A stretch of 64,000 nt of DNA from Geosiphon pyriformis uo1 (lineage: Eukaryota; Fungi; Glomeromycota). A model generated the notes under the pieces. The model was not told the DNA's origin and made no database searches. It was given only the letters and a program-made list of their open reading frames with translations. This document shows, piece after piece, positions 31,024 to 63,717 of the stretch (its first letter is position 1; every line of letters begins with the position of its first letter). A program made the position numbers and the translations under genes. The stretch is from the NCBI GenBank assembly GCA_016748015.1, contig JAAOMT010000591.1, forward strand, positions 605,050 through 669,049. Direction: 5' to 3'.

Positions 31024-32568
31024 ATGGGTGATTACTCATATCTGCCACAGCAATTAGAAGAACACTTTGCAGCACACAACAGAAACAACCTAGATTTCAT
31101 TGAACTTAATTCTCTGCCCTCCTGCTTGATCTGCTTTTCCATTGAAGAACAATCTAGCAGACAATGCCAAGACTTTTGGAACTGATTCCTGAATGAGCAT
31201 TTAGCTGAAACCTACACAACTTATACAACTTATTATTTTGATCAAGCTTATTTTGAAGACAACTTTGAAAAAAGAAACAACAGTATCAATCAGCTCTTAT
31301 ATTCTACAACCTTTGAACAACAGCCCCTTGATTTCGAATATCTGAATCATCAAATTCACATTTGGATTGCTGCCCATCAATCAATAGTAACTCCCCTTAA
31401 AACAGAAAAAGAAAGCTACCAAACAGCCCTTATTTTTGATCCCTTCTTAAGTGAATCAGAGCACTCCACACAAACAGTAACTCCTGAACCAATGGCCCAA
31501 GATTCAATGCAAGTAAACATTCTGGCCACCCTCCAAGGCATACAAACTGCTTTGGGATGAAGAAACAACACCCCACTATCCCTATTTAGAGATGATGCCC
31601 AAGATCCAATTGAATAGTTAAATGATTTTGAAAGAGCAGCCAGTGCAAACTAGTATGATGATGAATACAAGTTCCAAATCGTTGGTGGCTACCTCCAAGG
31701 CTCCCCTGCTACCTGGTTTTTACAAGAAACCAATGCTGGTGCTCAACAAAGAATTGTTAAATGGACCCCAGCAAATATTGAAAAAAACAATATTTCTTTC
31801 ACTACCCGATTTGAAAACAAATTCAGAACCCCTATCTTAATATCCAAATGGCATATGGAATTAGAAAAAAAAACCCAAGGTCCTGGTGAAATTGTGACCA
31901 AATATGCCAAAGCAATCAGAAAACTCATTAAGCGTATAGACTCTGGTAGAAACTGGACTGAAGAGCAAAAGATCCACTCCTTCACAAAAGAATTGAGAAC
32001 TGATTTATCATATGCTCTTTGGCCTCTCTTGGCTCTGAAAGACAACCCTACAATGAATATGGCTATTGAACTCGCCCAAAAGATTGAAGATAACCAAAGG
32101 ATGCATCTGGGATCCACACTTTTAATTTTTGCTTCTGCTCCTGTCATGGCCTCTGCTCCTCAAGTGGCTGCTACTTTTTTTGCTGCCCAAATCCAAGTCC
32201 CAAATGAACAATTGATAGATAGACTCACAGCTAACCTTGCCCGGTTATTAGAACCATTAACACAAGCAGTTAGAGATAACCAGCAACCACCAAGACCTAG
32301 ATATGAACCTCGTTTTGACCAGCCCCAGCAACCTCCCTATCAAAGACAGCAAAATCATGGCCCACCTGTGTGCTATTATTGTGGATTAACTGGACATTAT
32401 TCAAGAGATTGTAACAATTCTCCACTGCCTTCTCCAGCTCTCAGAAACAATGACAACCAAAACAACAGACCCAATAACAACAACAATGTCCCCAATCATG
32501 CCAACATCAATTTCTTTGAAGAGGATCCCTTAGTTGAAGCCACAGTTTATCAGCCTTTAAACTGGTAG
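31024..32568 (+). pseudogene. Family A gag with N-terminal extension, retrotransposon gag core and CCHC knuckle
   Basis: MGDYSYLPQ start; QGPGEIVTKYAKAIRKL; CYYCGLTGHYSRDC; several TGA/TAG decay stops. Confidence 0.88.
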
Positions 32569-32603
32569 GCACACTTCCAAAGGGTGAGAGTGCAAGCCAA
32601 CCA
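32556..32603 (+). promoter_or_regulatory. Putative -1 programmed ribosomal frameshift signal (U_UUA_AAC plus downstream stem-loop)
   Basis: Heptamer is correctly phased in gag two codons before the gag stop; the -1 frame is open into pol 32652-34796; GCAC..GTGC and TGGTAGGC..GCCAACCA pairings follow. Confidence 0.8.
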
Positions 32604-32651
32604 GAAGAAAACCTCTTTTACGCTTTTAACTTAACTGATGATGACCATGAC

Positions 32652-35600
32652 ATGGATGAACTAGCAATCAACACCTCAGAACCAACCAGAAAGAAGAAGA
32701 AAGCCAAGATTGATTTCGTTCTAGACCCCAACAAAGCCTCAACTTCTGCTGCTAATAACAATAAGCCACCAAAGGCTAAAGTTTTTAAGAATCCTCCAAA
32801 GTTGGAACCCCCAGAAATTGTACAAAAATCTGGACCCTATTCCATTGTCAAAGATCTTATGGAAACCCCAGCACATATTACCTTTGGCCAGTTAATGACC
32901 CACCTACAGTTCAGAAAAGATCTTCACAAATCCTTGATTCCAAAGAAGAAAACACCAAAAACCCACAAGCACTCTTGCCAAGTTGGACTTGCTGACAATA
33001 GCAATGTCACCCCTCTGATTTGTAAAGCCCAAATGGCTAAATACTTCATTGATTTAATTCTGGACAGCAGATCATCTGTTAGTGTCATTGCCAAACACTT
33101 TTTGGAAGCAATTGGTAGAAAAATTGATGAACCTTCCACTAGACCAATGACCAACGTACATGGTGACAAAAAGAAAGAACTGGGTATTGCCAAAGCTGTT
33201 CCTGTCTGCATCAATGGAATCAGCATTGAAACTGACATAGAAGTTTCTGAAGCCAAGGAATACACCATCATTGTTGGCAATAAATGGCTCAAGAAAGCAA
33301 AAGCTTTACTTGATTATGAACTTTGTGAATTAACCATCAGATGTGGTGAGAAACCCATTGTGGTTAAGTGTTACCATTGGACAACTTCTCCAATACCCAA
33401 ACAAAACCAAGAAGAAAAACAATCAGATGAATCAGATGATGAAGAAAGTGATGATGAAGAAGAACAAGAAGAGCAAGAAGAAACTGCTGAACTTACCTAT
33501 ACCACCTTCACCAGCAATGGCAAACCACTGGACAATGTTAAAGCAGACAAAAAAGGAATTATTGTAAATGACAAGCTAATTTGCTGGCCTTATTATGATA
33601 TTCTTAGAAGAACCTTTGAAAAAAAATCTGGCAAGAAAGCCAAATACAGTTTTTGGTGGCATGGTTCTTGTGCCCAGTGTTGGTGCAACAAACCCTTGTA
33701 TTCTCCAAGCGATAAATGCAAATCATGCCTGATCTATTACAGAGATTGGGAACCAATCAGTTTGATACCCAGAGAAGAATTGAAAGAAGTACAGAAGTCC
33801 TTTGAGAATGAACCACCTGAGATCCAATCACTAGTTGTAGAACAAAAAAAACCCTCCCCAGAAGAAAAAAAAATAGACATTGAAAATTTGCTGGCTAGAA
33901 ATAGCCCAGTTATTTCCAAAGAAGGTGATACCCCTGGATGTATCCATGTGATACAACACACTATCACCACCAGAGAAATTCGACCCATCCATTTGAAGCC
34001 TTATCAATCCAATCGGCACAATAATGAGTTTATCAAGAAAGAAATAAACCAGATGAAAGAACTTGGATTCATACAAGAAACCAAGAGTGAATGGGCTTTC
34101 CCAGTTGTAGTGGTATCCAAGAAAGGTGGAACACTACACTTCTGTGTCAACTACCGCCAGTTAAATGCTATCACTGAAAAAGACATGTACCCACTTCTCA
34201 AGATTGATGCAATGTTAGACCAATTCAAAGATGCTGCTTTCTTCTCAACCATTGACTTAACCACTGGATTCTGGCAAGTAGAGATGGATCCAGAAAGCAG
34301 AAAGAAAACTGCCTTCATTACCAAGTATGGCACTTATGAATTCACAGTCATGTCTTTTAGTCTCACCAATGCCCCTTCTATCTTTCAACACTTAATGAAT
34401 AAAGTATTTGAATCAGTCAAGGAAAACTTTGTTCTAGTCTATTTGGATGACATAATAGTATACTCAAAAACCTGGGATGAACACCTGGAACATTTGCAAA
34501 AAGTTTTTGACCTCCTCAGAAATGCTGGCCTCAAGATCAACCCAATCAAATCTTTCTTTAAAAGACAATCTACCCAGTTCCTTGGTCATCTTATTACAAA
34601 AGATGGAATCTTTCCTGACCCAGCCAAAGTTGAAAAAGTCCAAAACATCAAACAATTAATGAACATTCATGAACTATGCTCTTTTCTTGGTTTGGTCTCT
34701 TATTATTGCAAATTTGTCAAGGATTTCTCCAAAATTGTCTCTCCTCTCAATCAGCTACTTAAAAAAAATGTCAATTATTATTGGGAAACACATTAGCAAA
34801 AAGTCTTTGAAACTTTAAAGGAAAAACTGGTTATAAAACTCATCCTCAAGCAACCTGATCTAGATCGACCCTTTATCTTCCACACTGATGCATCTGGCTT
34901 TGAACTTGGTGCTGTTTTCTTCCAAAAAGATGAAAATGGCAAAAAACATGCCATAGCCTATGCCAGTAGAACTTTTTCCCCAGCAGAACAGAACTATTCA
35001 GTTACTGAACAAGAATGCTTAGCAGTAGTATGGTCCACCAGTTACTGGAGTAAGTACCTTCTTGATATGAAGTTTTTGGTGGTAACAGATCACCAAGCTT
35101 TGGTTTGGCTGCACAACAAAAAGAGGCTAAAACACAAATAAATAACTCACTGGATACTCCACTTGGATGAATTTGACTATGATATTCAACATCGCAAAGA
35201 AGCTAATCATCAAAACGCTGACACTCTCTTCAGACTTACCATCCAGTGACAGAACAACCCTCTTAAACCAAACCAACTTAATTATTAATAATTCCTCTTT
35301 TTGACAAACATGATAATGGACTTGGACAATTACTCTGTCTTAATAGAATTTTTGGGTAAAGAACAATACTCACCAAAATACACATGACAACAAAGAGAAC
35401 ATTTGCGCAAACAATCAAATTTCTATTTGATTCACCAGAACCAACTTTATAAAAAAAATAGAAAAAATTCTGACTGTTCCCAGAAAATCATCAGATTTGA
35501 AGAAAGAGAAATTGTGATCTACAATATGCACACTAATCCATTAGCTGGACACTTTGGAAAAACAAAAACAATTCAGAAAACTCTAGCTTGCTATTATTGG

Positions 35601-35887
35601 CCTACCTTGGGAAAAGACATTACTGAATATATCAAAACCTGTAATATCTGCCAAAGAAGAGAAAAACCCAATTGCAAAGAAAATATTCATTCAATCTCTG
35701 TTGGTCAACTCTTTGACAGAATTGGTATAGATGTTGTTGGATTTTTAACAATAACTCCTAATGGCAATAGATACATTATCACAGCTACCGACTATCTTAC
35801 AAAGTGGGTAGAAGCAAGAGCCACTTCAGACCAAACAGCAGCCTCAATAGCCAATTTCATTTATGAAGATATTTTTTGTCATCATGG
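32652..35887 (+). pseudogene. Family A pol: protease, acidic and short Cys region, RT, RNase H, integrase N-half; no dUTPase
   Basis: LILDSRS; FCVNYRQLN; VYLDDII; HTDASG; MH..PLAGHFG..C..C; FDRIGIDVVG; DYLTKWVEA. Confidence 0.93.
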
Positions 35888-36767
35888 TGTTACCAGACAA
35901 AATTAGAGATATTATTTAGCATAAAATTATCTTATAAATCCTATTATTAATTAGCATATATTATCATTTCAAATTATTACTTATTACATTAGCAAAATGT
36001 CCAAAATTATTATTTAATTAATAACCCAATTTGTACACAACACAAATGTAACCTAATTGTGATGATCAAATCATGCAATACCCCAAACTATGTAACATTT
36101 AAAAGTTCGCTGAAATTTGTAGAAATTTGCCGAAATAATTGATAGTTTACTGAAATATCTAATAGTTTGCTGAAATAACTTGTAGTTCGCCAAAATGTAT
36201 CTTTAGTTCAGTGAAATTGTAGAAAATAGCAAAGTTCAAGTTCATAGAATAATGTTACGACAAGTTGTATAAAAGAAGAGCATCTCTCTTCAAAAAAATG
36301 TATCTTACTTTAGTTTTATCACTTAGAACCATTCCTATACACACAAAAAGAAATAAATATCAAATAATTCGAAAAACCAAATTCTCTAATTATTTGCACT
36401 TAGAAAATCCCCAAGAACCCAACTAACATTTTGAAATTGATTAGCTACCAATTTCAGTAAACTGTTAGTGACTCCAGGCCTGGATAGAAAACGTTTTTCT
36501 TGACAAAATTCTATTTCTTTTACATTTCTTTTCTTTTTTTTCTTTTCTTTTCTCATTACAATCATTAAGGTAGCCTACAGACGAGATTCCTGTAAAAGAG
36601 TTGACTTTCACAGCAAAGTAACTATACATTTTAGTGAGCTTCCAAACAAGCAATTCCTGAGAAAGAGTTGACATTTACTACAACGTAACTACATAAAGTA
36701 ACTGGCAAGAAATTGGCCATTCTACTTATAAGCCCAGCAGTTCAAATTATAGAAGATAATTTGAAGA
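35888..36767 (+). repeat. Family B LTR, 3'-truncated by a deletion
   Basis: TGTTACCAGAC start; matches 41121-41977, then switches to family D RNaseH/IN sequence. Confidence 0.88.
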
Positions 36768-37583
36768 GAAAAAAAAATAGAAATGCTAATGGCTTGTCAT
36801 AAATAAGACAAATCTAAAAACATTTGAACCCAAAAATATAACAAAAAATAAATACACAAAAATATTAACAACTCCAATATTATATTAATACTCAACAGTT
36901 CAAGAAGAAATTATATCAAAAAGAACAAAACAATATAAAACAACAATCAAAATATTTTATTACTTACCAAAATACATTATATCAAAAAAACAAAAAAAAT
37001 CCAAGTCAATTACTCAGAGTAATCACAGAACTAAAGAAAGGAACAATACTATACAATATGCACTCAGATCTGACAACAAAATATTTTCATAAAGAAGCAA
37101 CCATAAAAAGAACCAAAAAAAGGTATTACTGGCCATTAATATATTCAAACATCATCCAATATGTTCAAAATTGTAATGCTTGTCAAAAAAAAGGAGGAAC
37201 AAAATCCAGTAAACCATTAAGACCAATTAAAGTGAGACAACTATTTAATAGAATTAGAATTGACTTAGTCAGATCATTAACAATAATCAGCAGAAGCAAC
37301 TATTATATAATAGTAGTTATAGACTATCTTACAAAATAGCCAGAGATGAAAGCAATTCAAAGAGCAGATGCAAAATCCATAGCTAAATTTGTTTATTAAG
37401 ATTTGGTTTGTTAACATAAATGTCAAAAAAAATTGTTATTAGATTAAGGAACTCACTTTGTAAACAGAACATTAGCAGAATTAAGCCAAAAATTTAGAAT
37501 CAAGAGACTATTTCATCATCATATTATTCACAAACAAATAGTTTAGTTGAAAAGTTCAACAGAATATTATGTAAAGCAATCGC
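36768..37583 (+). pseudogene. Inner D: end of RNase H and integrase N-half
   Basis: Collinear with 51360-52170; MHSDL..YYWP..CNACQ; DYLTK. Confidence 0.85.
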
Positions 37584-38736
37584 TGTTACCTGAGTAGAAA
37601 AACCGATCCAAAGTTATGAAAAAACGTGACCAAAATGTGACATAATACAGAATAATGCACAATAACATTGGATAACACGTTATAACATAGGATAACGTGT
37701 TATAACACAGGATAACACAGAATAGTGCACAATAACATAGGATAACGTGTTATAACGTAGGATAACACAGAATAACATGTAATAATATTAGATAACGTGT
37801 TATAACATAGGATAACTAACGATAACATAGAAAAACGAAGCAATAACAGAAACAACAAAGCAATAATTAGCAATAGCGAGACAATTGAAAGCAATCCTGT
37901 AAAACCAAAAGAATGTATAAAAGCAAGTAGTTGTAGAAGTGAGAAAAGACAGACAGATAGATACAAACCTCTAGACAAGAATTAAATATTCATACCTCTT
38001 CATCTTTTATTATCTTCCCTATTTCATCTTCTGAAATAAACCAATTATTAAAAAGATATCAGAATCACGAATTTATGTTCTCAAACTTCGTGGAATTTAT
38101 GTGAATTAACCCTTGTCTCGTACCTCTGTTCTAGGACAGATGTTTTTAGCATAACCACCTCGAACCTATTAACGATTTGGACCGATCGCTCTTGATCACG
38201 GTAATTGACAATACTAATTTATCTTTTCTCTCTTTCTTTTTTTTTTTCTTTTTTTTTTTCTTTTTTTTTTCTTTTTCTGTCTTATTTTTGTAGAGTGGCA
38301 ACATAGTAAAATTGACTGTTTGAGAATAGACTTCGTGATAGCCTGGTAAAAGAGAAAAGCTCCCTCTAAGTTTTGAATATTAACATTATCTTGTTAGTTT
38401 ACCAGAAGGGTGAAAAGACAACACTAGACCCTAATGACTGCACTCATTAGCTCGGAGAAGAAAGCTCACATTTACGAAAAACGTTGCAATCAATGAAAGA
38501 CAAACTCTGTGCCTTATAACCAAAGAACTCAATAGGTAAATTCACATCCAGAAATAGACCTTCAGAGACTGATAATCAAGACTAAGCCAACAGAATTACA
38601 TGGAAGACACATCATCCATAATTGAGAGCACCAAATGTTACCATTTTCTATATTTACCAAGTTTACCTGTAACATTTGGTGCTCCCTGTGAGGTTATAAA
38701 TCCACAGAGACAGAGCACCCCCAAAAATACATAAAA

Positions 38737-41700
38737 GTGGTGACTATTAGAACAATAGGAAAAGACCACTCCTTGTATGGAAAAGCACTATTTCAATACT
38801 TTTGAAAAGACCTAGGAATACCAGCAGAAATTACTTATGTAGAAAGTAATTTTTGTAACTATATCAATGCAAAAATTGACTGCTTATTAGGCCACACAAC
38901 TAATACAGGAAGACTTGGAGAACAAATCCATCAAAGCTTACTAGGGTACTCAACAGCCACAACTACCTGAGCAATCACTGAAACTCTGTGCATAATCGAT
39001 ACAGACATTAAATATTATGTGGTACAACAATTTCCTCAAGTACAACAACCAATGGAATCTGACCCTGAGGAATACAAAAACAAATCCAATAACCCCATAA
39101 CTGTCCAAGCCAAGTCTATGGTCAACAAGAAACCAAGGGTTTTCTTCCCAATAACTCCATCATACCATCAGACACCCCAGAGTAGAATTGTATTCAACCC
39201 ACCCCCAGAAACCCAGTCGAAAACACCATGAACTCCTGGAAATCCACACCCTTGGAATCAAGACAGTTGGACCAAATCACTAGGAGAATACGGATTGCTG
39301 TTTGGAAATCTTACCCTAGTAACTGGTCAAACATAAGGAAACCCATCAACTTGGGAACAGCCATCAGCACAAAACCTAGCAGAATCAGCATCTTTTCTGA
39401 CAGAAGAAACAGCTATCTTACAATCTATTGGTTCAAGCGACAAAGGAAAACAACCAGCATTAGTACCTGGAGAACACTCGAATATGTGGACACCAATTTC
39501 TTTAAACATAACCAGTAACATCCCACCCATTAACCAGATTATGGCTTACCAGGATATTGCTAAATTGGAAAAATTCTCTGGTGAAGAAGATAATGCATAT
39601 TCTTGGATCGCAGATGCTGAGAAAGCAATTACCACTAATGGTTGAAATAATGATCACACAATTCAGACACTGCTGTTCTTTCTGACCAGAACTGCCGATT
39701 TGTGGTACCAGAGCCTCACAGAGAAGCCTACCTCCTTTACCGAGTTTAAACTCGCATTTCTGCAATACTTCTGTGACCCCAATATGTTAATCCGATTACA
39801 GAATCAATTCAGCATAATTAAACAAAAAGATCATGAAGCAGTAACTACTTATCTCAAACGATTCAATCAAATCCTGCGTCAAATATTAGCTATCGAAAGG
39901 AACTACTACACCATGGCACAAGTTCTTAATCAATTCATTAAAAGATTGCGGAATGGTATTCTAAAATCCATAAGACCCTACTATCTGACCAGTTTACAAG
40001 ACACCGTCGCTCTCGCTTGCAATTTTGAGTCTGCAGAACAAGAAGCGAACCATACCCAAGCCGTTAATTTAGCCATTAATGGAACCTCTGACATCGACAC
40101 AAAAATAACCCAATTGAGTGAGAAATTAACTCAGAAAATTGAGGGATTTTTAGCCAGAACTACAGAAACTTATCAACCACCCCAACAGAGAGAAAATAAC
40201 AACAACAGCAGATACCCACAGCAACAGAACTGTCAGTAACAGCAACAACTTTGGAGATCCAATTCCCACAATTGTTACTACTACCAGAAACCTGAACACA
40301 TTGCCTGTGACTGCAGAAGGAAGATCATGGACCAAAATCAAGAAAACCCATACCAGCAACCCAGATATCAGCAAAACATGGTACTTCAATATTCCATACC
40401 TCAGAATCAACCACTTCTATATGCACAACAAGTCCTATACACTCAACCACTACTCCAGAATTATTATTAACTACTACCAATGACACAAGCAATCCCTCAC
40501 TATCAAACTTCCCCTTACAGCCTGTCTAGACTTCGAGCTATAGACTATAATCAGGAATGAAAGAATCCCAACAACAATCAGGTGCAAACCAACAGTGGAC
40601 TGTCTTGACCAATCCTTCGTGGTTCTGCCTAATCTCAACTAATACCAACTAGATACCCAAATCAAGCTTCCTATTTTGGTCTTATGGAAGACCAAAGTTT
40701 TAATAAATCTACACCTATAGAAAGGGGGGATATAAAACAAATCTCCCAACCTTCCAAGCAAACAAAAAGCAATATCCCACCAGCCACTATTACTGAAGAC
40801 ACCATCATATTTCCTTTTGACATCGATAATTTGAACACCCATAGCCTTTTTAGTGAAGCAGCCATCAATCAAGATAAACCAATAACGGCCCTATACACCA
40901 ATGCCAGAGTTGAAGGAATAGACATTAAATTAATTCTGGATAGTGGATCAGCCAGTAGCATAATCACGAAGCAGCTCATGAACCAACTAGATCGCCGAGT
41001 AGACCATGCTGCTACTGTCTGGATTATTACAGCAAATGGAAACACAAAAACCCCGATAGGAGAAATTGACAACTTTCCCTTCAAGATTAATGGAATCCAA
41101 ATCCCTACTAAAGTACTCGTTGTTACCAGATGAAATTAGAGATATCATTTAGCATGAAACTATCCTATAATTTCTATCATTAATTAGCATATATTATCGT
41201 TTCAAATTATTACTTATGACATTAGCAAAAAATGCCCAAAATTATCATTTAATTAATAACCCAAATTGTACACAACACAAATGTAACCTAATTGCGATGA
41301 TCAATCATGCAATACCCCGAACTATGTAACATTCAGAAGTTCGCCGAAATTTGTAGAAATTCACCGAAATAATTGATAGTTTACCGAAATATCTAATAGT
41401 TTGCCGAAATGTATCTTTAGTTCAGCAAAATTGTAGAAAATAGCAAAGTTTAAGTTCATAGAATAATGTTACAACAAGTTGTATAAAAGAAGAGCTTCTC
41501 TCTTCGAGAAAATGTATCTTACTTTAGATTTATCTCTTAAAACCGTTCCTATATACACAAAAAGAAATAAATATCAAATAATTTGAAAAACCAAATTCTT
41601 TAATTATTGTACTTGAAAAATCTCCAAAACCCAACTAACATTTCGAAATTGATTAGCTACCAATTTCAGTAAACTGTTAGTGACTCCAGGCCTGGATAGA

Positions 41701-44700
41701 AAACGTTTCCCTTGATAAAATTCTATTTCTTTTACATCTCTTTTATTTCCTTTTATTTTCTTATTATAATCATTAGGGTAATCTACAGATGAGATTCCTG
41801 TAGAAGAGTTGACTTTCACAGCAAAGTAACTACACATTTTTAGTGAGCTTCCAGACAAGCAATTCCTGGGAAAGAATTGACGTTTACTACAACGTAACTA
41901 CATAAAGCAACTGGCATGGAATTGGCCATTCCACTTATAAGCCCAACAAGTTCAAATTATAGGAGATAATTTGAAGATAAATTCAGTTACTGGAGGTTCA
42001 ACCACATCCAGAAAACGTGAATTCACAGCAAACAAGTATCAACAACATTACAGAAAAGAGACCAAAAACCTCCAGTAACATCATCATGAAAACTACTCAA
42101 TATTAAGCTCTAGTAGGAAACAATTGGTTGTCAAAAGCCAACACTACTCTCAACAGGAACACTTAAGAACTTCAACTCACATTCAATGGACAGCATGCCC
42201 AAGTCCCAGCTATGTGCGGATACTTTAAAACCCAATGTACCAAGGAACCCCTTATTGAATTCAAAGACACATCAATGTCACCAACCATTGAAACTTATCA
42301 GGTTTCATGGGCGGATGATTATCAAACTGAACTACCCCCACCACCAACCTGGGGAGAAAAAGAAAAAGACAAAGCCGAAAAAGAATCCCAATCATCATTA
42401 CTAGGATACATAACCTTAGACCAAAGAAACTTATTTTACCAACCCCCAAGACTAATATGTGTCAATTGTGGAAAAAAACTATCCACTATGAGCACATGTA
42501 TTAGAGACAACAAAAAATGGCCCACCGCCACCAAATACTATTGCAGACCTTGTTTACTGGAAAGATTTGGATGACCAAAATAACGAGACAAGTGGGACAA
42601 CATGCTGTGTCTTGCATGTGGCGAAATCCTGCCAGATGAAGGACTCTGGAATGATATGCCTGGCAAAGGAGGAACATGCAATGAGGCTTGTCAATACACC
42701 ATATTAATCAATGATTGGGTATGAAAGGAAACCCCCATCGAGGATGCTTGAAAACAAGCCCTCAACAGACTGGATGGTTATCCACACAATGACCATGAAA
42801 TCTGGAGAATGGCAAGTGCCAAGGCTGAAGGTGCCATGCCCAAAGAAATATGAGAAATTAAGGACAACTCTTGGACGCCCAAATATAATGAACCTGACTA
42901 TCCCAAGGATGATTTCTTCATAGATGATCCAGACGCATTTCAGAACTGATATCAGGAATTGGCCCTGACTCGCGAAGAACAGAAGCAAAAGTTGGCTGAT
43001 TTGAATACCAAACTGTGCAATCACTGTTTGATCCCCTGTCACTTCTAGTACTACGACAAATGTGATCTCATGTTCAATCCGTCTCCAAAAATACTGTTTC
43101 CAATTACTGAACTACCTGAGCCCAAAGAAGAGATATTGATCACAGAAAACATGTTGTTTCAAGATCCAACTAAGGATACTGAAACAGAACAGTATCTTGC
43201 ATATTCCGACCTATTCAAAGAACTAGAGCTAAAATGGTACAATGACAACGAGAAAAGAATCTGTCCCAAAAGAGCGCATGACACTGATGCCAGTTTTGAC
43301 CTATGATATCTCAGACAATTACCCATCATTATAGCCTCATATTCCCTCGTAAAAATAGATCTTAAGATAGTATTAGAAATTTTTGTTAGTACAATAGTAC
43401 AAGTTGTCTCTTAATCTAGTCTAGCCAAGAAAAAAATTGACGTAAAAGGAGGAATCATCAATGCCAGTTACACAGGAAACATCATTGTAATGCTACAGAA
43501 CAATTCGAACAGACCCTACAAAATAGAATCACAAGAAAAGATTGCCCAAACTATCTTCCTACCCCTAGTCAAAATACTCCAATTAACTCCAGTAACAACC
43601 TGAGAAGAGTTATGTCTCACTGCCCAAGGAATCAATGGGTTTGGATCAAGTGGAAGAGGAAACGTACCAGTTAATTTCATGGAAGAAAACAGTGACCAAG
43701 TAAAATTTATCAATACTGATATCGTCATCTCCATTCCCCCATATCAACAATACATCCTTAAGATAAATCGAAAGATCCAAGATCAAGCCTTGTTATTCGA
43801 AGCCAGTCCTGAAATCTGTTCTCTAGCCGATGTTGCTAATCTATACCTACTGGCCAAAGCCCATAAACACTTCAAAATCTCCATCCACAACCTGACAGAA
43901 AATGTCATTGAAATCCCTGAAGGGACTCTCATCGGTTCCATATCTGCAGATATTCAGAATTCTGAAAAACTCCAGTCCATTCCAGATTTTACACAATTAT
44001 TCTTATTCTGTGACATTACTTCACAAGTATGGAATTTGTCAAAAGAAAGTTACTTGTTCACACCAGAAGAGATCAATAAATTGAATTTAGGAAATTTAAG
44101 TACCCTGCAACAAATGCAACTCAAAGTCCTTCTGAATTAGTATGTTGATGTCTTTGCCAGCGAAAATGAGTTCAGACGCACTGACATTGTAAAACATCAG
44201 ATTGATACGAGAGACACTCGACCGATTAAGCAATGAGCTTACCACGTATCTCTATTTGACAATAACCTAATTAAGCAAGAAGTGCAACGGATGCTTGATA
44301 ACGGCCTAATCAAAAAATTGTTAAGCCTTTGGTTCTCTTCAGTAGTCTTGGTCACCAAGAAAAATAGAAAAGTGCAATTCTGCATAGATTATTGAAAACT
44401 AAATAGCATTACACGAGGAAATAGTTATTTTACTTCCCTTATTCAGAAAATTCTGGACAATCTAGGGAAAAAGAAATAGTTCTCGTCATTAGATTTAGCA
44501 AGTGGTTACTGGCAAGTTGAAATGGACCCCAAAGACAAAAAAAAAACAGCGTTTACCACTCGAGACGGAAACTTCAAGTTTAACATAATGCCTTTTGGAC
44601 TTTGTAATGCTCCTGCCACGTTTCAATGCCTGATGGATGTAGTATACAAAGGAATCCTTTGGAAATCAGTAGTAGTCTACCTAGATAACACAAACGTGTT

Positions 44701-46860
44701 CTCTGAAACATTCGATGACCATTTGCTTCACCTGCAACAAGTCTTTGAATGCCTTCATAGTGCCAAATTGAAACTCAATCCCAAGAAGTACTTCTTTGAA
44801 AAAACCAAGTTAAAATTCCTAGAACATGTAATCAGCAAGGACAGAGTTAAACCCAATTCAGATAAAGTACAAAAAGTCAAGAATTTTTCAGCTCCAATCA
44901 ACCTTAAAGAATTATGAGAATTTTTAGGATTGGCAGGATATTATTGTCAATTTGTCAAAGGTTTTTTGAACATCACAAAACCATTCCATCAATTGTTGTC
45001 CAAATACATACCGTACTTGTGGAAGGAAGATCAACAGAAAACATTTGACTATCTCAAGCAGTGATTGATCACATCTCCAATCTTGATTTACCCAGATTTC
45101 ACTAAACAGTTCATTGTCGCTACAGATGCCTCGAAAAATGCTCTAGGAGCAGTCTTATCACAAATAGGACCAGACAATAGAAAACACCTAGTTGCCTATG
45201 CTAGTCACAGCACTAGCCCAGCAGAAAAAAATTACAGCACAACAGATCTGGAATGTCTCACCATTTATTGGGTCTACAGACTTGGAAACATTACCTCAGT
45301 CAACCATTTGACCTATATACCGACCACAAAGAACTTATTTGGTTACTCAACAATCCACAACTAGAAGAAAAATATGCAAGATGGAGTACTTATCTGCAAC
45401 AATTCACATTCAAAGTCCATTACAAGGAAGGATCCAAGAACACCAATGCCGAAAGTTTGTTGAGAATACCACAAACCTAATCCCAGACTCATGGACACAC
45501 TCACTTATCAATGACTACATCAGTACCTATCGACACTACATTTCAAGGAGATATTATCTCAACAGGAACAAAGTACCATATAAAAACAAGCCCGAAATTA
45601 TTTTATTCAAGACAACCAACTATATTGATGAGAATGCCAAAACCACCCCAATCCACAATAACTAATCAAGAACAGTGAAAGAGAAACTATACTATATAGC
45701 GTGCACTCAGATCTGACTGCAGGACACTTTAACAAAGATGCTATCTTCAAAAGAACATTAAACTTATACTATTGGCCAATGATATACAAAGACATTTTCG
45801 AATACATGCTCAATTGTGACACATGTCAGCAAAGAGGAGGAGCAAGATCAACAGAACCACTTCAACCCATTCCAGTTGGAAATCTATTTGATAGAATCGG
45901 GATTGACTTGGTTGGATTTCTTTCAATTACATCCCAAGGAAATTGCTATATCACTGTAGCCATAGACTATCTTACAAAATGGCCAGAAGCCAGAGCAATC
46001 CAAGTGGCCAATGCCAAAACAGTAGCCAAATTTGTGCATCAAGACTTAATTTGCTGACATGGATGTTCGAAAGAATTATTATCTGATCAGGGAACACACT
46101 TTGTTAATAATACACTAACTAAACTAAGCCAATGGTTTGGAATAAAGAAACTCTTATCATCACCATACTACTCACAAACAAATGGACTGGTAGAACAATT
46201 TAACAGAACACTGTGCGAAGCACTAGCAAAAATAAGTCATGAAAACAAACAAAAATGGGACTTATTCATACTTTCTGTACTCTTTGCATACCAAACATTG
46301 AAACAAAATATGACTCAGTTCACACCGTTTGAACTAGTCTATGGAAAAAAAGCTACGTTACTGATTGAATGAGTAATACCGTCATACCTAACAGAAACAA
46401 TCAATGAAGAGAATTTTGAAGCTACCTTATACCAAAGAACGTATCAGCTAATGAAAACGTTGGAAAACAATCAAAGAACAGCAGCTGACAATATTAGTTA
46501 TGCTCAAGAATGACAAAAAGAAAGACATGATAAACACCTATCAGAACAACCAATGAAATTCAAGATTGGAGACCAAGTACTGTTATATCGTACAAAAGCT
46601 GAGAAACAATGGAGTGGAAAGTTTGACCCAAAGTGGAATGGTCCATTCCACATACACGAAGCATTAGAAAATGGAGCTTACAAATTACGATTGGAAGACA
46701 GAATTTTAAAAAAAGTAGCGCATAGAAATCGGTTAAAAATTTATCATGAAAAACAGGAATCATTGTCATCAGTACTTTAACTAGGAACACAAATTTCATT
46801 AATTAGACCAAAAGATATACCACAAGATTTGGAACCAATCATCATCATCGAAACATAGAC
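38737..46860 (+). pseudogene. Family C gag-pol: gag, PR (LILDSGS), Cys domain ~42435-43080, dUTPase ~43258-43660, RT, RNase H, integrase with GPF/SH3-like tail
   Basis: MPFGLCNAPATFQ, VYLDNT, VATDAS, MHSDLTAGHF, FDRIGIDLVG, KFKIGDQVLL..KFDPKWNGPF. Confidence 0.93.
41121..42080 (+). repeat. Solo LTR, family B, in the protease of element C (TSD TCGT/TCAT)
   Basis: TGTTACCAG...CCAGTAACA; removal restores KVLVM(E)(A)TQ; no PBS or PPT adjacent; TATAAAA 41482. Confidence 0.95.
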
Positions 46861-46938
46861 AACGGGCAGCAAATTAAATTGGAGAATTCAAATATATATA
46901 GCATCCAAAAAGCAGCAAGAAACGATAGAAATTTCAAC

Positions 46939-47673
46939 ATGGACTTTTCAGATCAAATTTTAAAATTATCTAAACAATTATTTGAAACAATTCAAAAATC
47001 GACATCTCAAATAGAAATAACAATTGATAAAAAAGAGATATGGTACAAAAATAAGAGCAAGAGAGGGGAGAATGAGAGTTCAATTAGAATTAAACATTTC
47101 TTTCCCTACCCACCACCCAAAAGGCAATGTTGGAGGAAAAATTGTCTTTGGACAGGAGGTGGAAAAAAAGAAGGCAAAAAACAAGAAAAAGGTTACAAAA
47201 AAAGATACTTGGTTCTCGAGCTTGAAGAAATAAAAGAAGCTTTAGCTTGTGGAACTGAACTCCCCGAAACAGGGGAGTAGACACCTGACAACGCCCAGAA
47301 ATGGAAAGAAAGACTTTTCCCAGCTTATTGGTTCTACAAAATTGGAGAACAGCTTGACTTGAAAACACCATACGAAGACCTCAGCCAGAAAACGTTCAAC
47401 AAAGAAGCAATACAACAAGTAGAAAAATTCATAGGGAAAAACAACCTGACTCTACATTACAAAGCAGCATACCAACTATATGCTGCCTTCCAACATTGCC
47501 CAAATGTGCTACTGAACGGATCTATGAAAACCATAACGGTTAACAACATAGGACGAATAACCAATCAACAGTTCAAAGACCTACAAAAGGCAATACTCGA
47601 GACAACAATCGAACATTACACAAACGAAGCCACGATAACAGATACATACAGTTTTGCAGAAGCTCAATTTTAA
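46939..47673 (+). pseudogene. Family C third ORF (ORF3) between integrase and PPT; unknown function
   Basis: MDFSDQILKLSKQLF..IEITID and KTFNKEAIQQVE..LHYKAAYQL..MKTITVN..AQF*; homologous peptides in families D and B. Confidence 0.75.
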
Positions 47674-48356
47674 AAAGAGAGGGATAATGTTACCCAAGTA
47701 GAAAAACCGATCCAAAGTTATGAAAAAACATGACCAAAATGTAACATAACACAGAATAATGCGCAATAACATTGGATAACACGTTATAACATAGGATAAC
47801 ATGTAATAACGCAGAATAACACAGAATAGTGTGCAATAATGTAGGATAATGTGTTATAACGCAGGATAACACAGAATAACATGTAATAACGTTAGATAAT
47901 GTGTTATAATATAGGATAACTAGCGATAATATAGAAAAATGAAGCAATAACAGAAACAACAAAGCAATAGCTAGCAATAGCGAGACAATTGAAAGCAATT
48001 CTGTAAAACCAAAAGAATGTATAAAAGCAAGTAGTTGTAGAAGTGAGAAAAGGCAGAGAAGAAAAAATAAATACAAACTTCTAGACCAGAAATTAAAATA
48101 TTCATATCCCTTCATCCTTTATTATCTTCCCTAGTTCATCTTCTGAAATAAATCAATTATTAAAAGAAATCAGAATCGCGAATTCATGTTCTCAAACTTC
48201 ATGAAATTTATGTGAATTAACTCTTGTTTTATACCTCTGTTCTAGAACAAATGCTCTTAAGATAACTGCCTCAAACCTATTAATGATTTGGACTGATTGC
48301 TTTTGATTATGGCAATTGACAATACTAATTTATTTTTTCTCTTTCTTTTTTTTTTC

Positions 48357-48399
<43 letters not shown>

Positions 48400-48797
48400 C
48401 TGTCTTATTTTTGTGGAGCAGCAACATAGTAAAATCGACTGTCTGGGAATAGACTTTGTGATAGCCTGGTAAAAGAGGAAAGCTCTTCCTAAGTTTTGGA
48501 TATTAACATTATCTTGTTAGCTTACCAGAAGGACAAAAAGACAATGCCAGACCCTAATGACTGCACTTGTTAGCTCGGAGAAGAAAGCTCACATTTATAA
48601 AAAACATTGTAATTGACAAAAGACAAACTCTGTGCCTTATAACCAAAGAACTCAATGAGTAAATTCACATCCAGGAATAGACCTTCAGAGACTGATAATC
48701 AAGACTAAGCCAACAGAATTATGTGGAAGATGCATCATCCATAATTGAGAGCACCAAACGTTACCATTTCTCATACCCACCAAGTTTACCCATAACA

Positions 48798-49450
48798 TCA
48801 CCAAAATCAGCCAAAAAAACTAGAATAAATGGGATTTGTTTATACTATTAGTATTATTTGCTTATTGAACAATAAAGCAAAATACTACACAAGCAATACC
48901 ATTTGAACTTGTTTATAGTAGAACTGTTATTTTACCAGTTGAGATAGAAATCAATATGTATCTAACTGAACCAATAACAGAAACCAACTTTCAAAAAACA
49001 TTTTTAAGAAGAATATACAACTTAATAAAAACATTAGAAAACAAAAGATAAAGAGCAGCTGATAATATTCAGAAGTCACAAGAAAAACAAAAAAAATGAC
49101 ATGATAATCAATTATCAGAGAAACCAGTAGAATTCAAGATTGAAGACAAAGTACTTTTGTATCATACCAAAGTAAAAAAACAATGAAGCAGAAAATTTGA
49201 CTTCAAATAGAACAGACTATTTTACATAGAAGAAATTTTAGGAAATAGAACTTATAAATTAAGATGAAACAACAAAATCTTAACCAAAGTAGCACATGGT
49301 GATTGACTAAAACCATATTACAATATAATATTATTATCTACCAGTAATATTGCACAATTAGGAATACAATGAATACTAGTCCAACCAAATAAGATCTCAC
49401 AAAATCTTGAACCAATTATAATTATTGATTCAAATACATCAAATTAATTG
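48798..49450 (+). pseudogene. Inner D integrase C-half
   Basis: Collinear with 52170-52810; PFELVY, EFKIEDKVLLY, KVAHGD. Confidence 0.85.
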
Positions 49451-49502
49451 ACCAAAAAAGTATATAAGGACATAATATATGTGACAAAAAAAACCAAAGA
49501 AA

Positions 49503-50134
49503 ATGAAAATACCAGATCATATTCACATTTTAGCTCAACAATTATTTCAGACCTTAAATCAACAACAATTGAACATAAAAATTACCATCAACCACCAAAC
49601 AACTATCAAAACATCAAACAAAAAAAAAAAAATACACCATACTAGAGACCACAGAACCAATCAAAAAGCTGGTTAGATAAAATAATAGAAAAAGTGAAGA
49701 ATACTTTTGGGAAAATATTTATTATAGTTCTAACAAAAGAAATGTTAAAAAAAAATTAGAAACAATGAATAGAACAACTTCTAATATTATACTACTACTA
49801 TTAGTTGAAACAAAAGTTGGATATTTAGAAATTATATTTTGATAAAACCAAGAGAATATTTAATCAAGAAATAATATAGAACATTGAAAACATTATTGAA
49901 AAGAAAACAAATTTGATACTATATATTAGAGCAATCTATTGACTACATACAATATTTTAAAACTACTTAGAAATATTGCTACACCCTAATATAAAGACAA
50001 TAATCATTAACCAGTGTGAAAGAATAAACAACTCACAAATTGAAAATATAAAAAGCAAAGTTAAACAAATAATATTAAAAAAAGAAGTTATGGACTTAAT
50101 TCAAAATGAAAATTTTAATAAAGCTCAATATTAA
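49503..50134 (+). pseudogene. Inner D ORF3
   Basis: MKIPDHIH..QLFQ..; ends KAQY* at the PPT; TATATAA at 49461. Confidence 0.7.
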
Positions 50135-50877: not shown

Positions 50878-53800
50878 CCATTTTATCTAGAACTTTTCTA
50901 AACTGGTTCAACCACTTCACCAGCTCCAAGCCAAAAATATAAAATATGAATGGACAGAAACCCAACAAAAAGCTTTTGATATACTAAGAAGAAAGCTTAT
51001 TTAAGCATTAGTATTAATCTATCCAAATTATAGCAAGTCATTTATTATTATAACTAATATATCTGATCAAGCATTAGAAATAGTCCTATTGCAAAAAAGA
51101 CTGAATAGAAGAGAACATTCAGTAGTATATGCTAGTTACAGCTTAAGTCCAGCTGAAAAGAACTATAGAACACCAGCACTAAAACACTTAGCTATCTATT
51201 AAGCAATTATAAAATAGAAGAAATACTTAAGCCAGAAATTTGACATATACACTAATCACAAAAGATTAACATTAATCCAGAAACAAAAATTTGGAGATGA
51301 TTGTTATGTGAGATAAAAAATAAAACTTTTACTATTCAAATATACTATACATGATAAAAAAAAAAAAAAAAAACAGAAATGCTAAGAATAAAACAAATCT
51401 AAGAACATTTTGACCCAAAAATATAATAAAAAATAAACACACAAAAATATCAACAACTCTAATATTATATTAATACCTGACAGTTCCAAGAGAAATTATC
51501 TCAAGAGAAACAAAACAACATAAAACAACAATCCAAATATTTTATCACTTACCAAAATATACTATACCAAAAAAACAGAAAGAATCCAAATTAACTACTT
51601 AGAGTAATTACAGAATCAAAAAAAGAAACAATACTATACAACATGCACTCAGATTCAACAGCAGAACATTTTCATAAAAAAGCAACCATAGAAAGAACCA
51701 AAAAGAGATATTATTGGCCATTAATATATCTAAACATCATTCAATACATTTAAAGTTGTGATGCTTGTTAAAGAAGAAAAGAAACAAGATTCAGTAAACC
51801 ACTAAGACTAATTAAAGTGAAACAACTATTTGATAGAATTGGAATTAACTTAGTCAGACTATTAATGATAACCAATAAAAGCAACTATTATATAGCAGTA
51901 GTCATGAATTATTTTACAAAATAGCCAAAGATAAAAGCAATTCAAAAAGCAGATACAGAATCTGTAGCTGAATTCATTTACCAAAATTTGATTTGTTAAC
52001 ATGAATGCCCAAAAAAATTGCTATCAAATCAAAGAACTCACTTTGTAAACAGAACATTGGCAGAATTAAGTCAAAGATTTGGAATCAAGAGACTATTATC
52101 ATCATCATATCATCTATAAACAAATGGTTTAGTTGAAAGATTCGACAGAACATTGTGTAAAGCAATTACCAAAATCAGTCAAAAACCCAAAATGAATGGA
52201 ATTTGTTTATACCATCAGTACTATTTGCTTATTAGACAATGAAGCAAAATACCATACAAGCAACACTATTTGAACTTGTTTATAATAGAACAATAACATT
52301 ACCAGTTAAGATAAAAGTCAATATATATCCAACTGAACCAATTAACAAAACCAATTTCTAAAGAACATTACTAAAAAGAACATATAAACTAATAAAAACA
52401 TTAAAAAACAAAAAACAAAAAGCAGCTAATAATATTCAAAGATCACAAAAAAAACAAAAAGAAAGACATAATAACCAATTACCAAATAAACTAGTTAAAT
52501 TCAAAATTGGAAACAAAGTATTTTTGTATTGTACCAAAGTGAAAAAACAATAGAGTGAAAAATTTGACCCCAAATGGGACAGACCATTTCACATAGAAGA
52601 AATTCTAAGAAATGGAGCTTATAAATTAAGATGAGACAACAAAATTTTAACCAAAACAGCACATAGTGATCGGCTAAAACCATATTACAATATAGTACTA
52701 TTATTTACTAATAATATTTTACAACTAAAAGTACAATAAATACTAGTCCAACCAGATAAAATTTCACAAAATCTGGAACCAATATAATCATTGATTCAAA
52801 TGCATCAAATTGATCGACCAAAAGAGTATATAAGAACACAGTATACATGACAAAAAAACCAAAGAAAATGAAAATACCAGACCATATTTACACTTTAGTT
52901 TAACAATTATTTCAGGTTTTAAATCAACAACAATTGGACATAGAAATTACCATTAATCACCAACAATCTGTTATCAAAACACCAAACAAAAAAAAAGTAC
53001 ATCATATCAAAAACCACAAAATCAACCAAGAAACTAATCAGATAAAATAATAGAAAAAGTAAAGAACACTTTTGGGAAAATATCTATTATGGTTTTAACA
53101 AAAAAACTTTCCAAAAAAAATTGGAACAGTAGATAGAACAATTTTCAATACCATACTGCTACTATTAGTTGAGACAAAAATTGGATATTTAAAAGTTATA
53201 TCTTGATAAAACCAAGAGAATATTTAATCAAGAGATAATATAGAATATTGAAAACATTATTGAAAAAAAAACAAACCTGATACTACACATTAGAGCAATT
53301 TATCAATTACATACAATATTTCAAAATTACTCAGAAACATTGCTACATTCTAATATGAAAACAATAATCATTAACCAGTGGAAGAGAATGAACAACTTAT
53401 AAATCGAAAATATAAGAAGCAAAATTGAATAAACAATATTAGAGAGAGAAGTTATAGATCTAATTCAAAATAAAAAGTTTAATAAAGCTCAATATTAAAA
53501 GGAGGAAATAATATTACTTATAGAAAAAGCATACATTAAATAATAGAAAAAATAAATAAACCAATAAGAGAATAATAATTAACATGTAAGCACATTGCTT
53601 AGCAATATGAGCATTACTTAAGAAATTATAACACATTACTTGGAAATGTAAATAATCTTGTAGAACTCAAATTATGTATATATAGCAAAAGTATTAGAAG
53701 CAGAAAAAACAGAATTAATATCAAAATCTTCTAGTTAAAACATTTTAATTAGAATCTTTAATATTAATAAATAATTATTTACTATTTAAATTACTTTTCT

Positions 53801-55484: not shown

Positions 55485-56542
55485 TGTTACCAGTAGAATT
55501 TTAGCTATTAATTAGCATGAAAATTACCCTTATAATTCATATAATTTATTAGTATATTAATATCATTTCAAATTATCATTTATTATTTAATCAATTATCA
55601 CATATCACGATTTAATTAAAATAATCTAATTAGTATAACAGAAAGTAGGATGATCAAATTATACAATACCCTGAACTTTATAACATTCAAAAATTCGCCG
55701 AAATTTACAGAAATTCGCCGAAATTTATAAGAAATTCGCCGAAATTTACAGAAATTCACCGAAATTATGAATAGTTCACCCAAATTAATGAATAGTTTAG
55801 TGAAATAACTTGTAGTTCATCAAAATGTATCTTTAGTTTGCCGAAATTTGAGCAAAAAGAAAAAGTGCAAGTTCATAGACTAGTACTACAACAAGTGTAT
55901 AAAAGAAGAGCTTTTCTCTTCTGGAAAATGTATCTTATTTTAGATTTATCTCTTAAAACCGTTCCTATACACACAAAAAGAAATAAATATCAAATAATTC
56001 GAAAAAACCAAATTCTTTAATTATTGTACTTGGAAAATTCCCAAAACCCAACTAACATTTCGAAATTGATTAACTACCAATTTCAGTAAACTGTTAGTGA
56101 TCCCAGACCTGAATAGAAAACGTTTCTCTTGACAAAATTCTATTTCTTTTATATTTCTTTTATTTTCTTTTTCTTTTCTTATTACAATCATTAGGGTAGC
56201 CTATAGATGAGATTTTTGTAGAAGAGTTGACTTTCACAGCAAAGTAACTATACATTTTAGTGAGCTTCCAGATGAGCAATTTCTGGGAAAGAGTTGACGT
56301 TTACTACAACGTAACTACATAAAGTAACTGGCAAGGAATTGGCCATTTCACTCATAAGCCCAGCAAGTTCAAATTATAAGAGATAATTTGAAGATAAATT
56401 CAGTTACTAGAGGTCCAACTACTTCCTGAAAATGTGAATTCACAGCAAACAGGTATCAACAACATTTAAGAAAAGAGACCAAAAGCCTCCGGTAACATTT
56501 GGTGCTCTCCCACGGAAATAACACAGCAACAACAAATTCAAA

Positions 56543-59500: not shown

Positions 59501-62500
59501 ATCAATGGAGCCACCCAAGAAAATGTCCACCAAATAAAAGAAGCTGAATATATTGAGTATACCATGGAATTAGCTGGATTTGATTATGAAGATGAAGTAG
59601 AAACCTACCACCAAATTGCAAGCCACACATATCTGACCAAAAAAGCTCAAATTCAACAATTAGAGCAAATAAACATTCAATTGTGTGAAGAATGTGTTAT
59701 GCCTTGTGATGACCAATAGTGTTTAGAATGTTATGCTCTTAGCATTCCTCTGCCGGAGGAGAATGATGAAAATGAAATCGAATTTGGAGTATCTGAACTA
59801 GTAAAAGAACTACCAACCACTTTCATCTATCTTCTTGAAAAGCAATCACCTCTACAACTTAAATATTTTGACAACCATGGCCAAGGAATTAGACCAGAAA
59901 AAGCACACGAAATTGATGCTGGATATGACCTAAGATACCCAGGAAAAGATACTTTGATTCTCCAACCCAAGTCTTTGACAAAAATCAATCTCAAAATTGC
60001 TCTTGAAATTCCACCAGGAGCAATGATTCAAATTGCCTCCAGATTATCATTGGCAAGCAAAGGAATCAATATTAGAGGAGGAGTTATAGATGCAGGATAC
60101 ACTGGAGACATTATCATCATATTACAGAATAAGATAAACAAACCATTCAAAATTGAACATGCTGAAAAAATTGCTCAAGCAATTTACTTACTCTTAATCA
60201 ACATTTCGGGTTTACAATCAGTAAACAACAGAGAACAATTGGGAAAAAGTGAAAGAGGAACTCAAGGTTTTGGTTCAACTGGATGATTTACAGTCCCAGT
60301 AAACATAACTCTTAATACACAAAATGAATCTCACCAGATTCTTCAACTTCCTCAGCCAATTACCATTTCACCTTTTGGAGAACATCACGAAATTTACACT
60401 TGCTCAAAACCCACCACTACACAACAAATCTTTAAATCCAATGAACAAATCTGTTTGAAGCATGAAATATCAATTCCAAACGTTTATATTCCCAAAGGAA
60501 TGAAAAAATTTCGAATTACATTCTACAACTCCAATAATTACTCTATTGTTTTATTAAACAAATTAGAAATTGGAATCATACACAGCAACATCTTGCAAGA
60601 TGAAAACCCTCAGATTGTCTCTAATTTCATCGAAATTGTAAAGCACACTCTACTTCCATATCTAAATATCATTTCCACTACTGAAAACTACCACTTGTTG
60701 GAAGAAAAACTCTCTTGAATCAATATGGGCCCCTTAGAACCTCAACAACAAAGACAATTGAAACAATTGATAGCTGAATTTGCAGATATATTTGCAAAAA
60801 ACAACAATGACTTGGGAAAAACAGACATTGTTCAACATCAGATTCATACAGAAGATACCCTACCAAAATGTCAATAAGCTTATTGAGTGCCACCTGCCAG
60901 CCACCAATTCATTAGAGAAGAGGTCCAAAGAATGCTCAATAACGGATTGATTCAACCATCAAGAAGTTCTTGGGCCTCACCAGTAGTTTTAGTTAAAAAG
61001 AAAAACGGAAAAATCAGATTTTGTGTTGATTATAGACAACTGAATAGTGTTATAATTGGAGATATCTACCCTCTTTCAAGAATTGATGACATGCTAGATG
61101 CTCTAGGAAAAGCCAAGTTCTTTTCAACTTTAGACCTGGAAAGTGGATACTGGCAAGTCGAAATGGACCCAAAAGATAGACCCAAAACAGCATTCACCAC
61201 TCAAGGAGAAAATTATGAGTTTAATATTATGCCTTTTGGACTCTGCAATATGCCAGCAACATTTCAGTGACTCATAGATGTTGTCTATGAAGGGCTCTTG
61301 TGGCAATCAGTAGTTGTTTATCTTGATGATACTGATGTATACTCACCAAGCTTTGAAGTCCATCTTATTCACCTGCGAAAAGTTTTTCAATGATTACGGA
61401 AAGCAGGATTAAAGTTAAATATTGAGAAATGTCACTTTGGAAAAACAAGCTTGATCTTTCTTGGACACATAGTTAGTAAAGATGGAATCAAACCAAATCC
61501 AGGAACAATCAGTGCTGTCAAAAACTTTCAAACCCTCAGAAATACTACAGAACTAAGAGGATTTGTGGGATTAGTCTCTTACTATCAAAAATTCATAAAA
61601 GAATTCTCAGAAATTGCCAAACCACTCAATTATCTTACCAACAAAAATGTACCATACAAATGGACTGAAGAACAACAAAAAGCTTTTGAAATTCTCAAAA
61701 CAAAATTGACAACAGCCCCAGTTCTTGTTTACTCAGACTTTAACAAATGATTCCAATAGCCACTGATGCTTCACACATAGCATTTAATGCTATCTTATCA
61801 CAATTGGATGAAAATGGCCAAGAACAAGTTATTGCCTATGCCAGTAGAACACTCAAGCCAACAGAACTCAAATATGGCTCAACTGAATTAGAAGCTGCTG
61901 CAGTTATTTGGGCTCTTAAACATTTTCAACAATATCTGAAGAATGGAAAAGAATTTGACATAATAACGGACAACATTGGCCTCAAATGGCTCAATAAAAA
62001 GAAAACTGAACAAAGTGCCAAACAGTCTCGATGGAATGACTTCTTAGCAGACTACAGATATATTGTACACCACAAACCAGGAAAACTACATACCAATGTT
62101 GATAGCCTCTCAAGAATGAGACAAGATTAATACCAACAACAATTCCACCACAACTTACCAACTTACTAACAAAATAACCAAACAAGAATAGATCTCAGAA
62201 ACTACAGCAATCTTAAAAATTATTTGGAGATTCTTACCATGTCAGAAAACTGGTCTCCAAGTGAAAAACACCACTTACAACACCAATTAAAACAATATTT
62301 CATACACCAAAACAAAATCTATTATAAAAATCACAGAAAACCAAACCAGCCACTCAGATTAGTACAAGAGAATAAAAAAGAAACAATTTTATACAACATG
62401 CACACAGATTCATCTTCAGCACACTTGGGAAAAGAGGGAACAATTCAAAAAACCCTTGAACATTATTTTTGGTCTTACATGCAAAAAGATATTCAATAAT

Positions 62501-63574: not shown

Positions 63575-63717
63575 AGCTTACAATAATTTTCTAATAAAAA
63601 CACAAAGACAAAAATAGTAAATAATTACAAAACACCCAAACCCAAAAACAAATAAAAATCCCATATCCAAAAAATAATTTTCTTTATTCTCTTTTTTCAT
63701 AATTAGTCAATTTTATC

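Follow-up and report, generated by a model that had tools for sequence, protein, structure and literature searches.

Several Ty3/gypsy elements of plants and of Botrytis possess extra ORFs that lie downstream of pol and ahead of the 3′ LTR; those of Athila and Bagy2 are described as sense and env-like, those of Grande (gene23), RIRE2, Retand and Boty as antisense, and gene23 of Grande as nuclear and endowed with its own promoter (PMC7264820). In other fungi, an "add. ORF" is indicated in Ty3/gypsy elements (PMC2864245), and the Juno, Vesta and TelKA elements of bdelloid rotifers carry, after pol, a lineage-specific non-env ORF3, together with a dUTPase between protease and reverse transcriptase (RT) (PMC5408684); the tas/bel2 genes of foamy viruses have an internal promoter (PMC7828637). 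Almost none of the extra ORFs known from LTR retrotransposons has a function; the one considered here represents an undescribed family.

A striking LTR expansion has been reported in Geosiphonaceae (PMC11952901), and the window analysed here, i.e. the whole 64,000-nt stretch of Geosiphon pyriformis DNA, is taken up by nested and decayed LTR retrotransposons (GC 24–40%, CpG observed/expected 0.19). In families C, D and B of these elements, homologous ORFs (hereafter ORF3) sit between integrase and polypurine tract; as judged from its sequence, ORF3 is a genuine accessory gene, maintained by selection, whose protein family is undescribed. No description of it was found in the mostly open-access literature searched, so that an earlier mention is possible. 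The initial annotation had placed a third ORF after the integrase stop in these three families, and the ATGs that it gave were borne out (Table 1).

Element C and its separate integrase frame

Element C (37584–48797) is complete, with two LTRs (88% identical, 5′ versus 3′), a primer-binding-like site, a polypurine tract and the target-site duplication TCGC/TCAC; these features, together with the domain order Gag, protease, RT, RNase H, integrase that it has in common with B (Pfam; tblastn map), are the marks of a Ty3/gypsy element (Metaviridae). It is nested inside the integrase of D copy 1 (D1; 36769–37583 and 48798 onward). The CpG observed/expected ratio is 0.44 in element C versus 0.06–0.23 in four other measured regions, and this higher value would fit C as the most recent insertion. 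An additional C-type LTR with its leader (23636–24742, 79–81% identical to the other C-type LTRs) splits an element at 19043–23635 and opens another C-type internal region. In five elements, a dUTPase is found between protease and RT (15962–16405, 22299–22754, 28134–28634, 43166–43654 and 59720–60283); the element at 31654–35906 gave no dUTPase match at this place. At the beginning of the window, a 1.39-kb inverted repeat, 95% identical (1–1387 versus 3018–4400), flanks an RNase H-bearing ORF (1481–2878) and is adjoined by an endonuclease ORF on the minus strand (5549–6484); it is likely either a fold-back or a pair of LINE copies in opposite orientation.

Table 1. Coordinates, within the window, of element C and of the ORF3 regions of families C, D and B.
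Feature	Position	Strand	Remarks
Target-site copy before 5′ LTR of C	37580–37583		TCGC
5′ LTR of full-length C element	37584–38674	+	TG...CA
Primer-binding-site-like sequence, 3′ of C 5′ LTR	38677–38693	+	starts TGG
Gag-protease-dUTPase-RT-RNase H region of C	39646–45480	+	decayed; Pfam, tblastn map
Family B LTR-type insertion	about 41121–42081		splits Gag-to-RNase H region of C
Terminal TAA, RNase H frame of C	45478–45480		
Integrase of C	45491–46858	+	own ORF; Pfam; stop TAG 46856–46858
TATA-box match, C integrase-ORF3 spacer (80 nt)	46893–46900	+	46 nt to ATG
ORF3 of C	46939–47673	+	ATG 46939; 244 codons, single frame; in-frame stop at codon 114
Polypurine tract of C	47672–47687	+	overlaps ORF3 stop
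3′ LTR of C	47688–48797	+	U3 tandem array 10/20/50-nt; TATA box at 48020
Target-site copy directly after 3′ LTR of C			TCAC
TATA-box match, D1 spacer	49461–49468	+	42 nt to ATG
ORF3 of D copy 1 (D1)	49503–50134	+	ATG 49503; broken: one frameshift, several stops; then purine tract, LTR from 50148
TATA-box match, D2 spacer	52827–52834	+	41 nt to ATG
ORF3 of D copy 2 (D2)	52868–53498	+	ATG 52868; broken: two frameshifts, several stops; then purine tract, LTR from 53512
Integrase-ORF3 spacer of B (143 nt)	63575–63717	+	no TATA box; T-rich tract, TAG 14 nt before ATG
ORF3 of B, first 94 codons	63718–64000	+	ATG 63718; ends at window end; intact relatives 235 aa

The integrase ATG of C is found 10 nt past the RNase H stop and in a different frame. 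In B, D2 and E (62128–62190, 51400–51440 and 35247–35320; 45478–45493 in C), the corresponding position holds a Met or ATA codon, in agreement with the integrase starts of three metagenome loci (L004, L006 and L008). The splitting of the integrase from the Gag-RNase H frame is shown for C; in B, D2 and E it is only likely, because the intervening stops in B and E could be due to decay. A motif of about 16 nt, common to L004 (before 238), L006 (before 814) and L008 (before 122), lies 25–45 nt upstream of the integrase ATG and is possibly an RNA element for the translation of free integrase. In the integrase tree, only one of the nine inner branches is starred. The idea that ORF3 is generally fused to the integrase, through a frameshift or by read-through, was rejected, since C, D1, D2 and B differ in how the two frames relate, and in B the spacer carries stops in the ORF3 frame.

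The ORF3 protein family

Intact copies of ORF3 occur among the gene models of G. pyriformis, with lengths of 244 (C), 235 (B), 239 (the sister family B2) and 209 aa (E); no intact full-length D ORF3 was found among the protein matches. At least seven sequence groups can be recognised, whose representatives are 21–68% pairwise identical, the D, F and additional C- and E-like groups being defined from fragments. The matches listed for the ORF3 of C (37 of 37) and for the B fragment (54 of 54) were all Geosiphon models; an ORF3 profile gave 277 matches and, among the matches listed, 120 of 120 belonged to Geosiphon, as did all 20 distant matches that were checked out of 35. A few hundred "hypothetical genes" of Geosiphon are therefore likely to be transposon ORF3 copies or chimeras. 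No ORF3 relatives were found in three viral-contig scans. The B profile aligns with the non-B profile over 194 columns (hhalign 97.7%, E 1.8e-12), and all 37 B models that come close to full length score 30–49 bits with the non-B HMM, versus at most 0.7 for their reversed sequences; length excluded the other 17 of the 54 matches.

The N-termini of C, D and B do align as quoted in the initial annotation, and the C-terminal block that it had reported for C and D (D2 is found from C by tblastn, E 1e-9) is present in B too, as seen in intact copies outside the window; also the position of the C and D stops, abutting the purine tract, was as noted. Its remark that it could not align the LTRs of the three families holds for B (and E), which show no match to the C or D LTRs, but not for C versus D, where two short patches align, one of them around the LTR TATA box (75% over 107 nt in the best patch, E 7e-15). 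ORF3 similarity begins at Met in every group with a start on record, and the family Met is the exact start in 55 of 244 stored proteins. Opposite codon 114 of C, the in-frame TAG, 17 of the 24 other rows of alignment A1 have W, and the remaining 7 have a gap. Contigs from the X1 DNA run were aligned on 45400–48900 of C (19,732 contigs over 3.5 kb) and on the B part (3,408): no indel at a share of at least 10% was seen inside the C ORF3, the sole one at this share falling in the LTR and none in 45400–48161, and none at a share of at least 25% inside the B part of ORF3; on C, transitions make up 608 of the 643 changes listed.

Protein-level selection is indicated by the divergence between B and B2 (4 and 20 full-length models, respectively), which is uneven by region, identity dropping from 0.79 in the helical core to 0.46 in the linker, while the decay within each family is roughly even (0.77–0.91 in all seven regions). 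Codon-position identities between C and D2 are 0.49/0.69/0.43 in ORF3 and 0.63/0.83/0.54 in the integrase, i.e. in the same direction, from a protein-guided alignment of decayed copies which is biased toward position 2. ORF3 evolves faster than the integrase, between-family identity being 24–36% versus 53–57%. Overall, ORF3 is very probably a selected protein-coding gene; the accessory gene under protein-level constraint initially proposed is upheld by the regional B/B2 identities, the codon positions and the cross-family profiles.

The ORF3 product is a soluble, mostly helical protein of 209–244 aa with no known family. In C it is predicted to consist of an N-terminal helix plus hairpin, a linker and a compact C-terminal helical domain (pLDDT 75.8, pTM 0.71), in which, over 20 rows, only F and L are invariant and one N nearly so; the linker contains basic stretches, which outside family C amount to only 4 K/R in 10. 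Signal peptide and membrane anchor are judged absent from hydropathy: no hydrophobic segment was found in eight of eight proteins (maximum 19-residue Kyte-Doolittle mean 0.27–1.18). No Pfam family exceeded the cut-off and Foldseek returned no match in PDB or BFVD at E ≤ 0.001; a Gag family was matched only weakly and in a single model, within its chimeric tail. With no membrane segment and no Pfam, PDB or viral fold match at these thresholds, ORF3 is most likely not an env, as the initial annotation had maintained. An enzyme of GDSL, DEDDy or AlkB type was also rejected, given no family profile match and no invariant catalytic residue, and so was a chromovirus-type chromodomain after the integrase, since the ORF3 proteins matched no chromodomain profile with E cut-offs of 1 and 0.5. 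In the Atlas, the C-terminal domain lies near unnamed Mucoromycota clusters (scores 0.92–0.94), the one lead for a possible likeness to an orphan helical family widespread among arbuscular mycorrhizal fungi; the full-length E protein gave no usable match there. For expression in yeast, the family combines a foldable protein with abundant elements of one fungal genome and natural intact copies, among them G9A89_015195, G9A89_009111 and G9A89_013590.

Signals upstream of ORF3

A third cistron on a genomic RNA is unreachable by scanning; lying behind the Gag-protease-dUTPase-RT-RNase H frame and the separate integrase frame, ORF3 would thus need a separate message. The initial annotation had assigned to it a TATA box of its own in C and both D copies. 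In C and D the box is present at 41–46 nt from the ATG, as TATATA; nevertheless, dinucleotide shuffles of the spacers yield a TATA match in 5.4% (C), 10.1% (D1) and 5.5% (D2) of the trials, so that each box taken alone is near chance (p 0.05–0.10), and D1 and D2 represent one family. On the + strand of the window there are 31 TATAWAWR matches, 11 in LTRs, 3 in the ORF3 spacers of C, D1 and D2 and 17 elsewhere. The first 11 nt of the spacer TATA of C are identical to the D LTR TATA box; 3′ of the spacer TATA, the likeness to an LTR core promoter is non-significant versus shuffles (p 0.10–0.23). The B spacer has zero TATA matches versus a chance expectation of 18%, and among its 3,408 X1 contigs no TATA-creating variant reaches a share of 25%; the T-rich tract and TAG reported there in place of a TATA box were confirmed, and are splice-acceptor-like. 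The internal promoter originally suggested is thus plausible for C and D and is not supported for B.

The same spacers contain YAG trinucleotides before the ATG, at −13 and −26 in C, at −29 in D2 and, as TAG, at −14 in B, whereas in D1 no YAG remains 3′ of the TATA box; a diverged relative, seen on loose contig ends, has a T-rich tract with the same TAATTAG end. With YAGs so close to the ATG in C, D2 and B (13–29 nt), splicing fits as well, above all in B. On the whole, we incline slightly towards an own promoter for ORF3 in C and D; in B, expression likely depends on either splicing or a TATA-less promoter.

A scan of metagenome integrases (464 pattern matches) led to 10 loci, two of them distant. 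Among the eight nearer ones, two have a sense ORF3 (L003, 910–1320, and L005, 715–1134, with 137 and 140 aa, ending at the purine tract), four an antisense coiled-coil ORF and one no extra ORF, the last being cut. In L003 and L005 a TATA box is found 7–8 nt past the integrase stop (shuffle 0.012 and 0.038), followed by a T-rich leader with no YAG between box and ATG. The L005 protein belongs to an 11-member metagenome cluster without any Pfam match. Homology of this family (P0197–P0208) to the Geosiphon protein is non-significant: hhalign gives 0.4%, below several column shuffles, and the best HMM score is 8.8 bits versus 3.7 for reversed sequences, with the top matches mostly in one motif register. 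The two TATA boxes consequently bear on the layout only, and as such support a putative promoter between integrase and ORF3 in the wider lineage. In L002 the integrase runs directly into the purine tract and LTR, with no ORF3. The ORFs of L001, L004, L006 and L007, on the minus strand, encode coiled coils of 100–180 aa with basic N-termini. As such antisense ORFs fill the ORF3 slot in close relatives of sense-ORF3 elements, the slot appears to be exchangeable.

Possible roles of ORF3 and comparison with known systems

The reading that we tentatively put forward, at somewhat under an even chance, is that ORF3 is a selected gene expressed in C and D from its own short, TATA-started transcript, and possibly a nuclear regulator boosting the LTR of its own element. 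A capped subgenomic RNA would start about 25–35 nt 3′ of the spacer TATA, with a 5′ leader of 10–20 nt, and would end in the 3′ LTR; the ORF3 product would then enter the nucleus and boost the element's own LTR, its C-terminal domain, speculatively, binding nucleic acid and counteracting host methylation at the tandem arrays of the LTR. The role of nuclear regulator, considered by itself, is a possibility to which we give a little over one third of the weight; it is suggested by the solubility of the protein, its basic linkers, its fast family-specific evolution, the U3 tandem arrays and the CpG-depleted host. An array is found near the 5′ end of each LTR family (37662–37830, 47746–47920, 55691–55797, 30406–30453 and 17783–17916), with periods of 10/20/50, 20, 12 and 41, and TEs of Rhizophagus are described as CG-methylated (10.1101/2021.03.30.436303). 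A more ambitious version, which we regard as doubtful, is a three-cistron plan comparable to that of a complex retrovirus, in which Gag-Pol lacks the integrase, the integrase is free and ORF3 has its own promoter, ORF3 being a family-specific DNA-binding anti-silencing factor or transactivator of undescribed fold which recognises its own LTR repeats; if true, it would help to explain the LTR expansion in Geosiphon. A promoter-driven regulator would also allow a direct test of LTR-element expansion in a CG-methylating host.

Expression of a real ORF3 in the manner of env, from a spliced RNA begun in the 5′ LTR, with the TATA incidental in AT-rich spacers, is rather unlikely, yet it draws on the T-rich tract and TAG of B, with the TAATTAG kept by a diverged relative, on the YAGs of C and D2 and on the precedent of spliced sense extra ORFs, e.g. 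in Bagy2 (PMC7264820); against it stand the near-equal TATA distances in C and D and the absence of YAG from TATA box to ATG in D1, L003 and L005. Alternatively, ORF3 might be a particle or integration cofactor, bringing the free integrase into the particle or, as a substitute for a chromodomain, targeting it to chromatin. That ORF3 adjoins the integrase, which in C has its own ATG and in B, D2 and E a Met or ATA in the equivalent place, and that it is a soluble two-module protein would suit such a function; we nevertheless consider it unlikely, since some relatives do without a sense ORF3 (L002 has none, L001, L004, L006 and L007 have antisense ORFs), L004 and L006 combine an own integrase start with antisense ORFs, and ORF3 diverges much faster than the integrase.

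For a self-limiting factor which, like Ty1 p22, damps transposition at high copy number, there is precedent in an internally started restriction factor (PMC4599808, PMC8458377), and the copy number is indeed very high, as judged from the 19,732 X1 contigs; however, p22 is a piece of Gag, to which ORF3 shows just the one weak match in a chimeric tail, and the families are highly amplified rather than held back, which makes this role improbable. Least credible, and by our estimate very improbable, is the view of ORF3 as a functionless passenger, either a fragment captured from the host or a frame open by chance. Every ORF3 copy in the window is damaged or cut off and the Mucoromycota clusters near the C-terminal domain could be host genes, but start, position and end are common to families only 21–41% identical, the regional conservation implies an inter-family dN/dS well below 1, and many copies are open despite the prevalence of transitions among the listed changes.

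Returning to a selected accessory gene with its own transcript, its position, its many copies and its conservation are shared with the additional ORFs of plants and fungi (PMC7264820, PMC2864245); unlike these, the Geosiphon ORF3 is sense and without membrane segment, follows in C and D a spacer that contains a TATA box, extends to the purine tract and constitutes an unrelated protein family, the integrase being a separate ORF at least in C. As in Juno, Vesta and TelKA, a dUTPase lies between protease and RT and an ORF3 follows pol; in the rotifer elements it encodes a GDSL esterase, a DEDDy exonuclease or a membrane protein, whereas ORF3 of Geosiphon gave no such Pfam match. The analogy with foamy viruses drawn by the initial annotation survives as one of layout, i.e. 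a 3′ accessory gene, a putative promoter within the element and Pol parts expressed apart from Gag; it does not extend further, the Geosiphon element being a fungal one of Metaviridae type without env, and no sequence or fold link having been found. The VANC anti-silencing proteins of Arabidopsis VANDAL elements (PMC5735166, PMC10398659), which are fast-evolving, family-specific accessory proteins that act on their own element in a methylating host, provide a functional model for the more ambitious version; VANDAL elements are plant DNA transposons, and the likeness would be one of function. With p22, made from the internal Ty1i transcript (PMC4599808, PMC8458377), ORF3 would have in common a fungal LTR retrotransposon as its carrier, the nature of a small regulator and an internal start, p22 differing in that ORF3 is an independent gene after the integrase.
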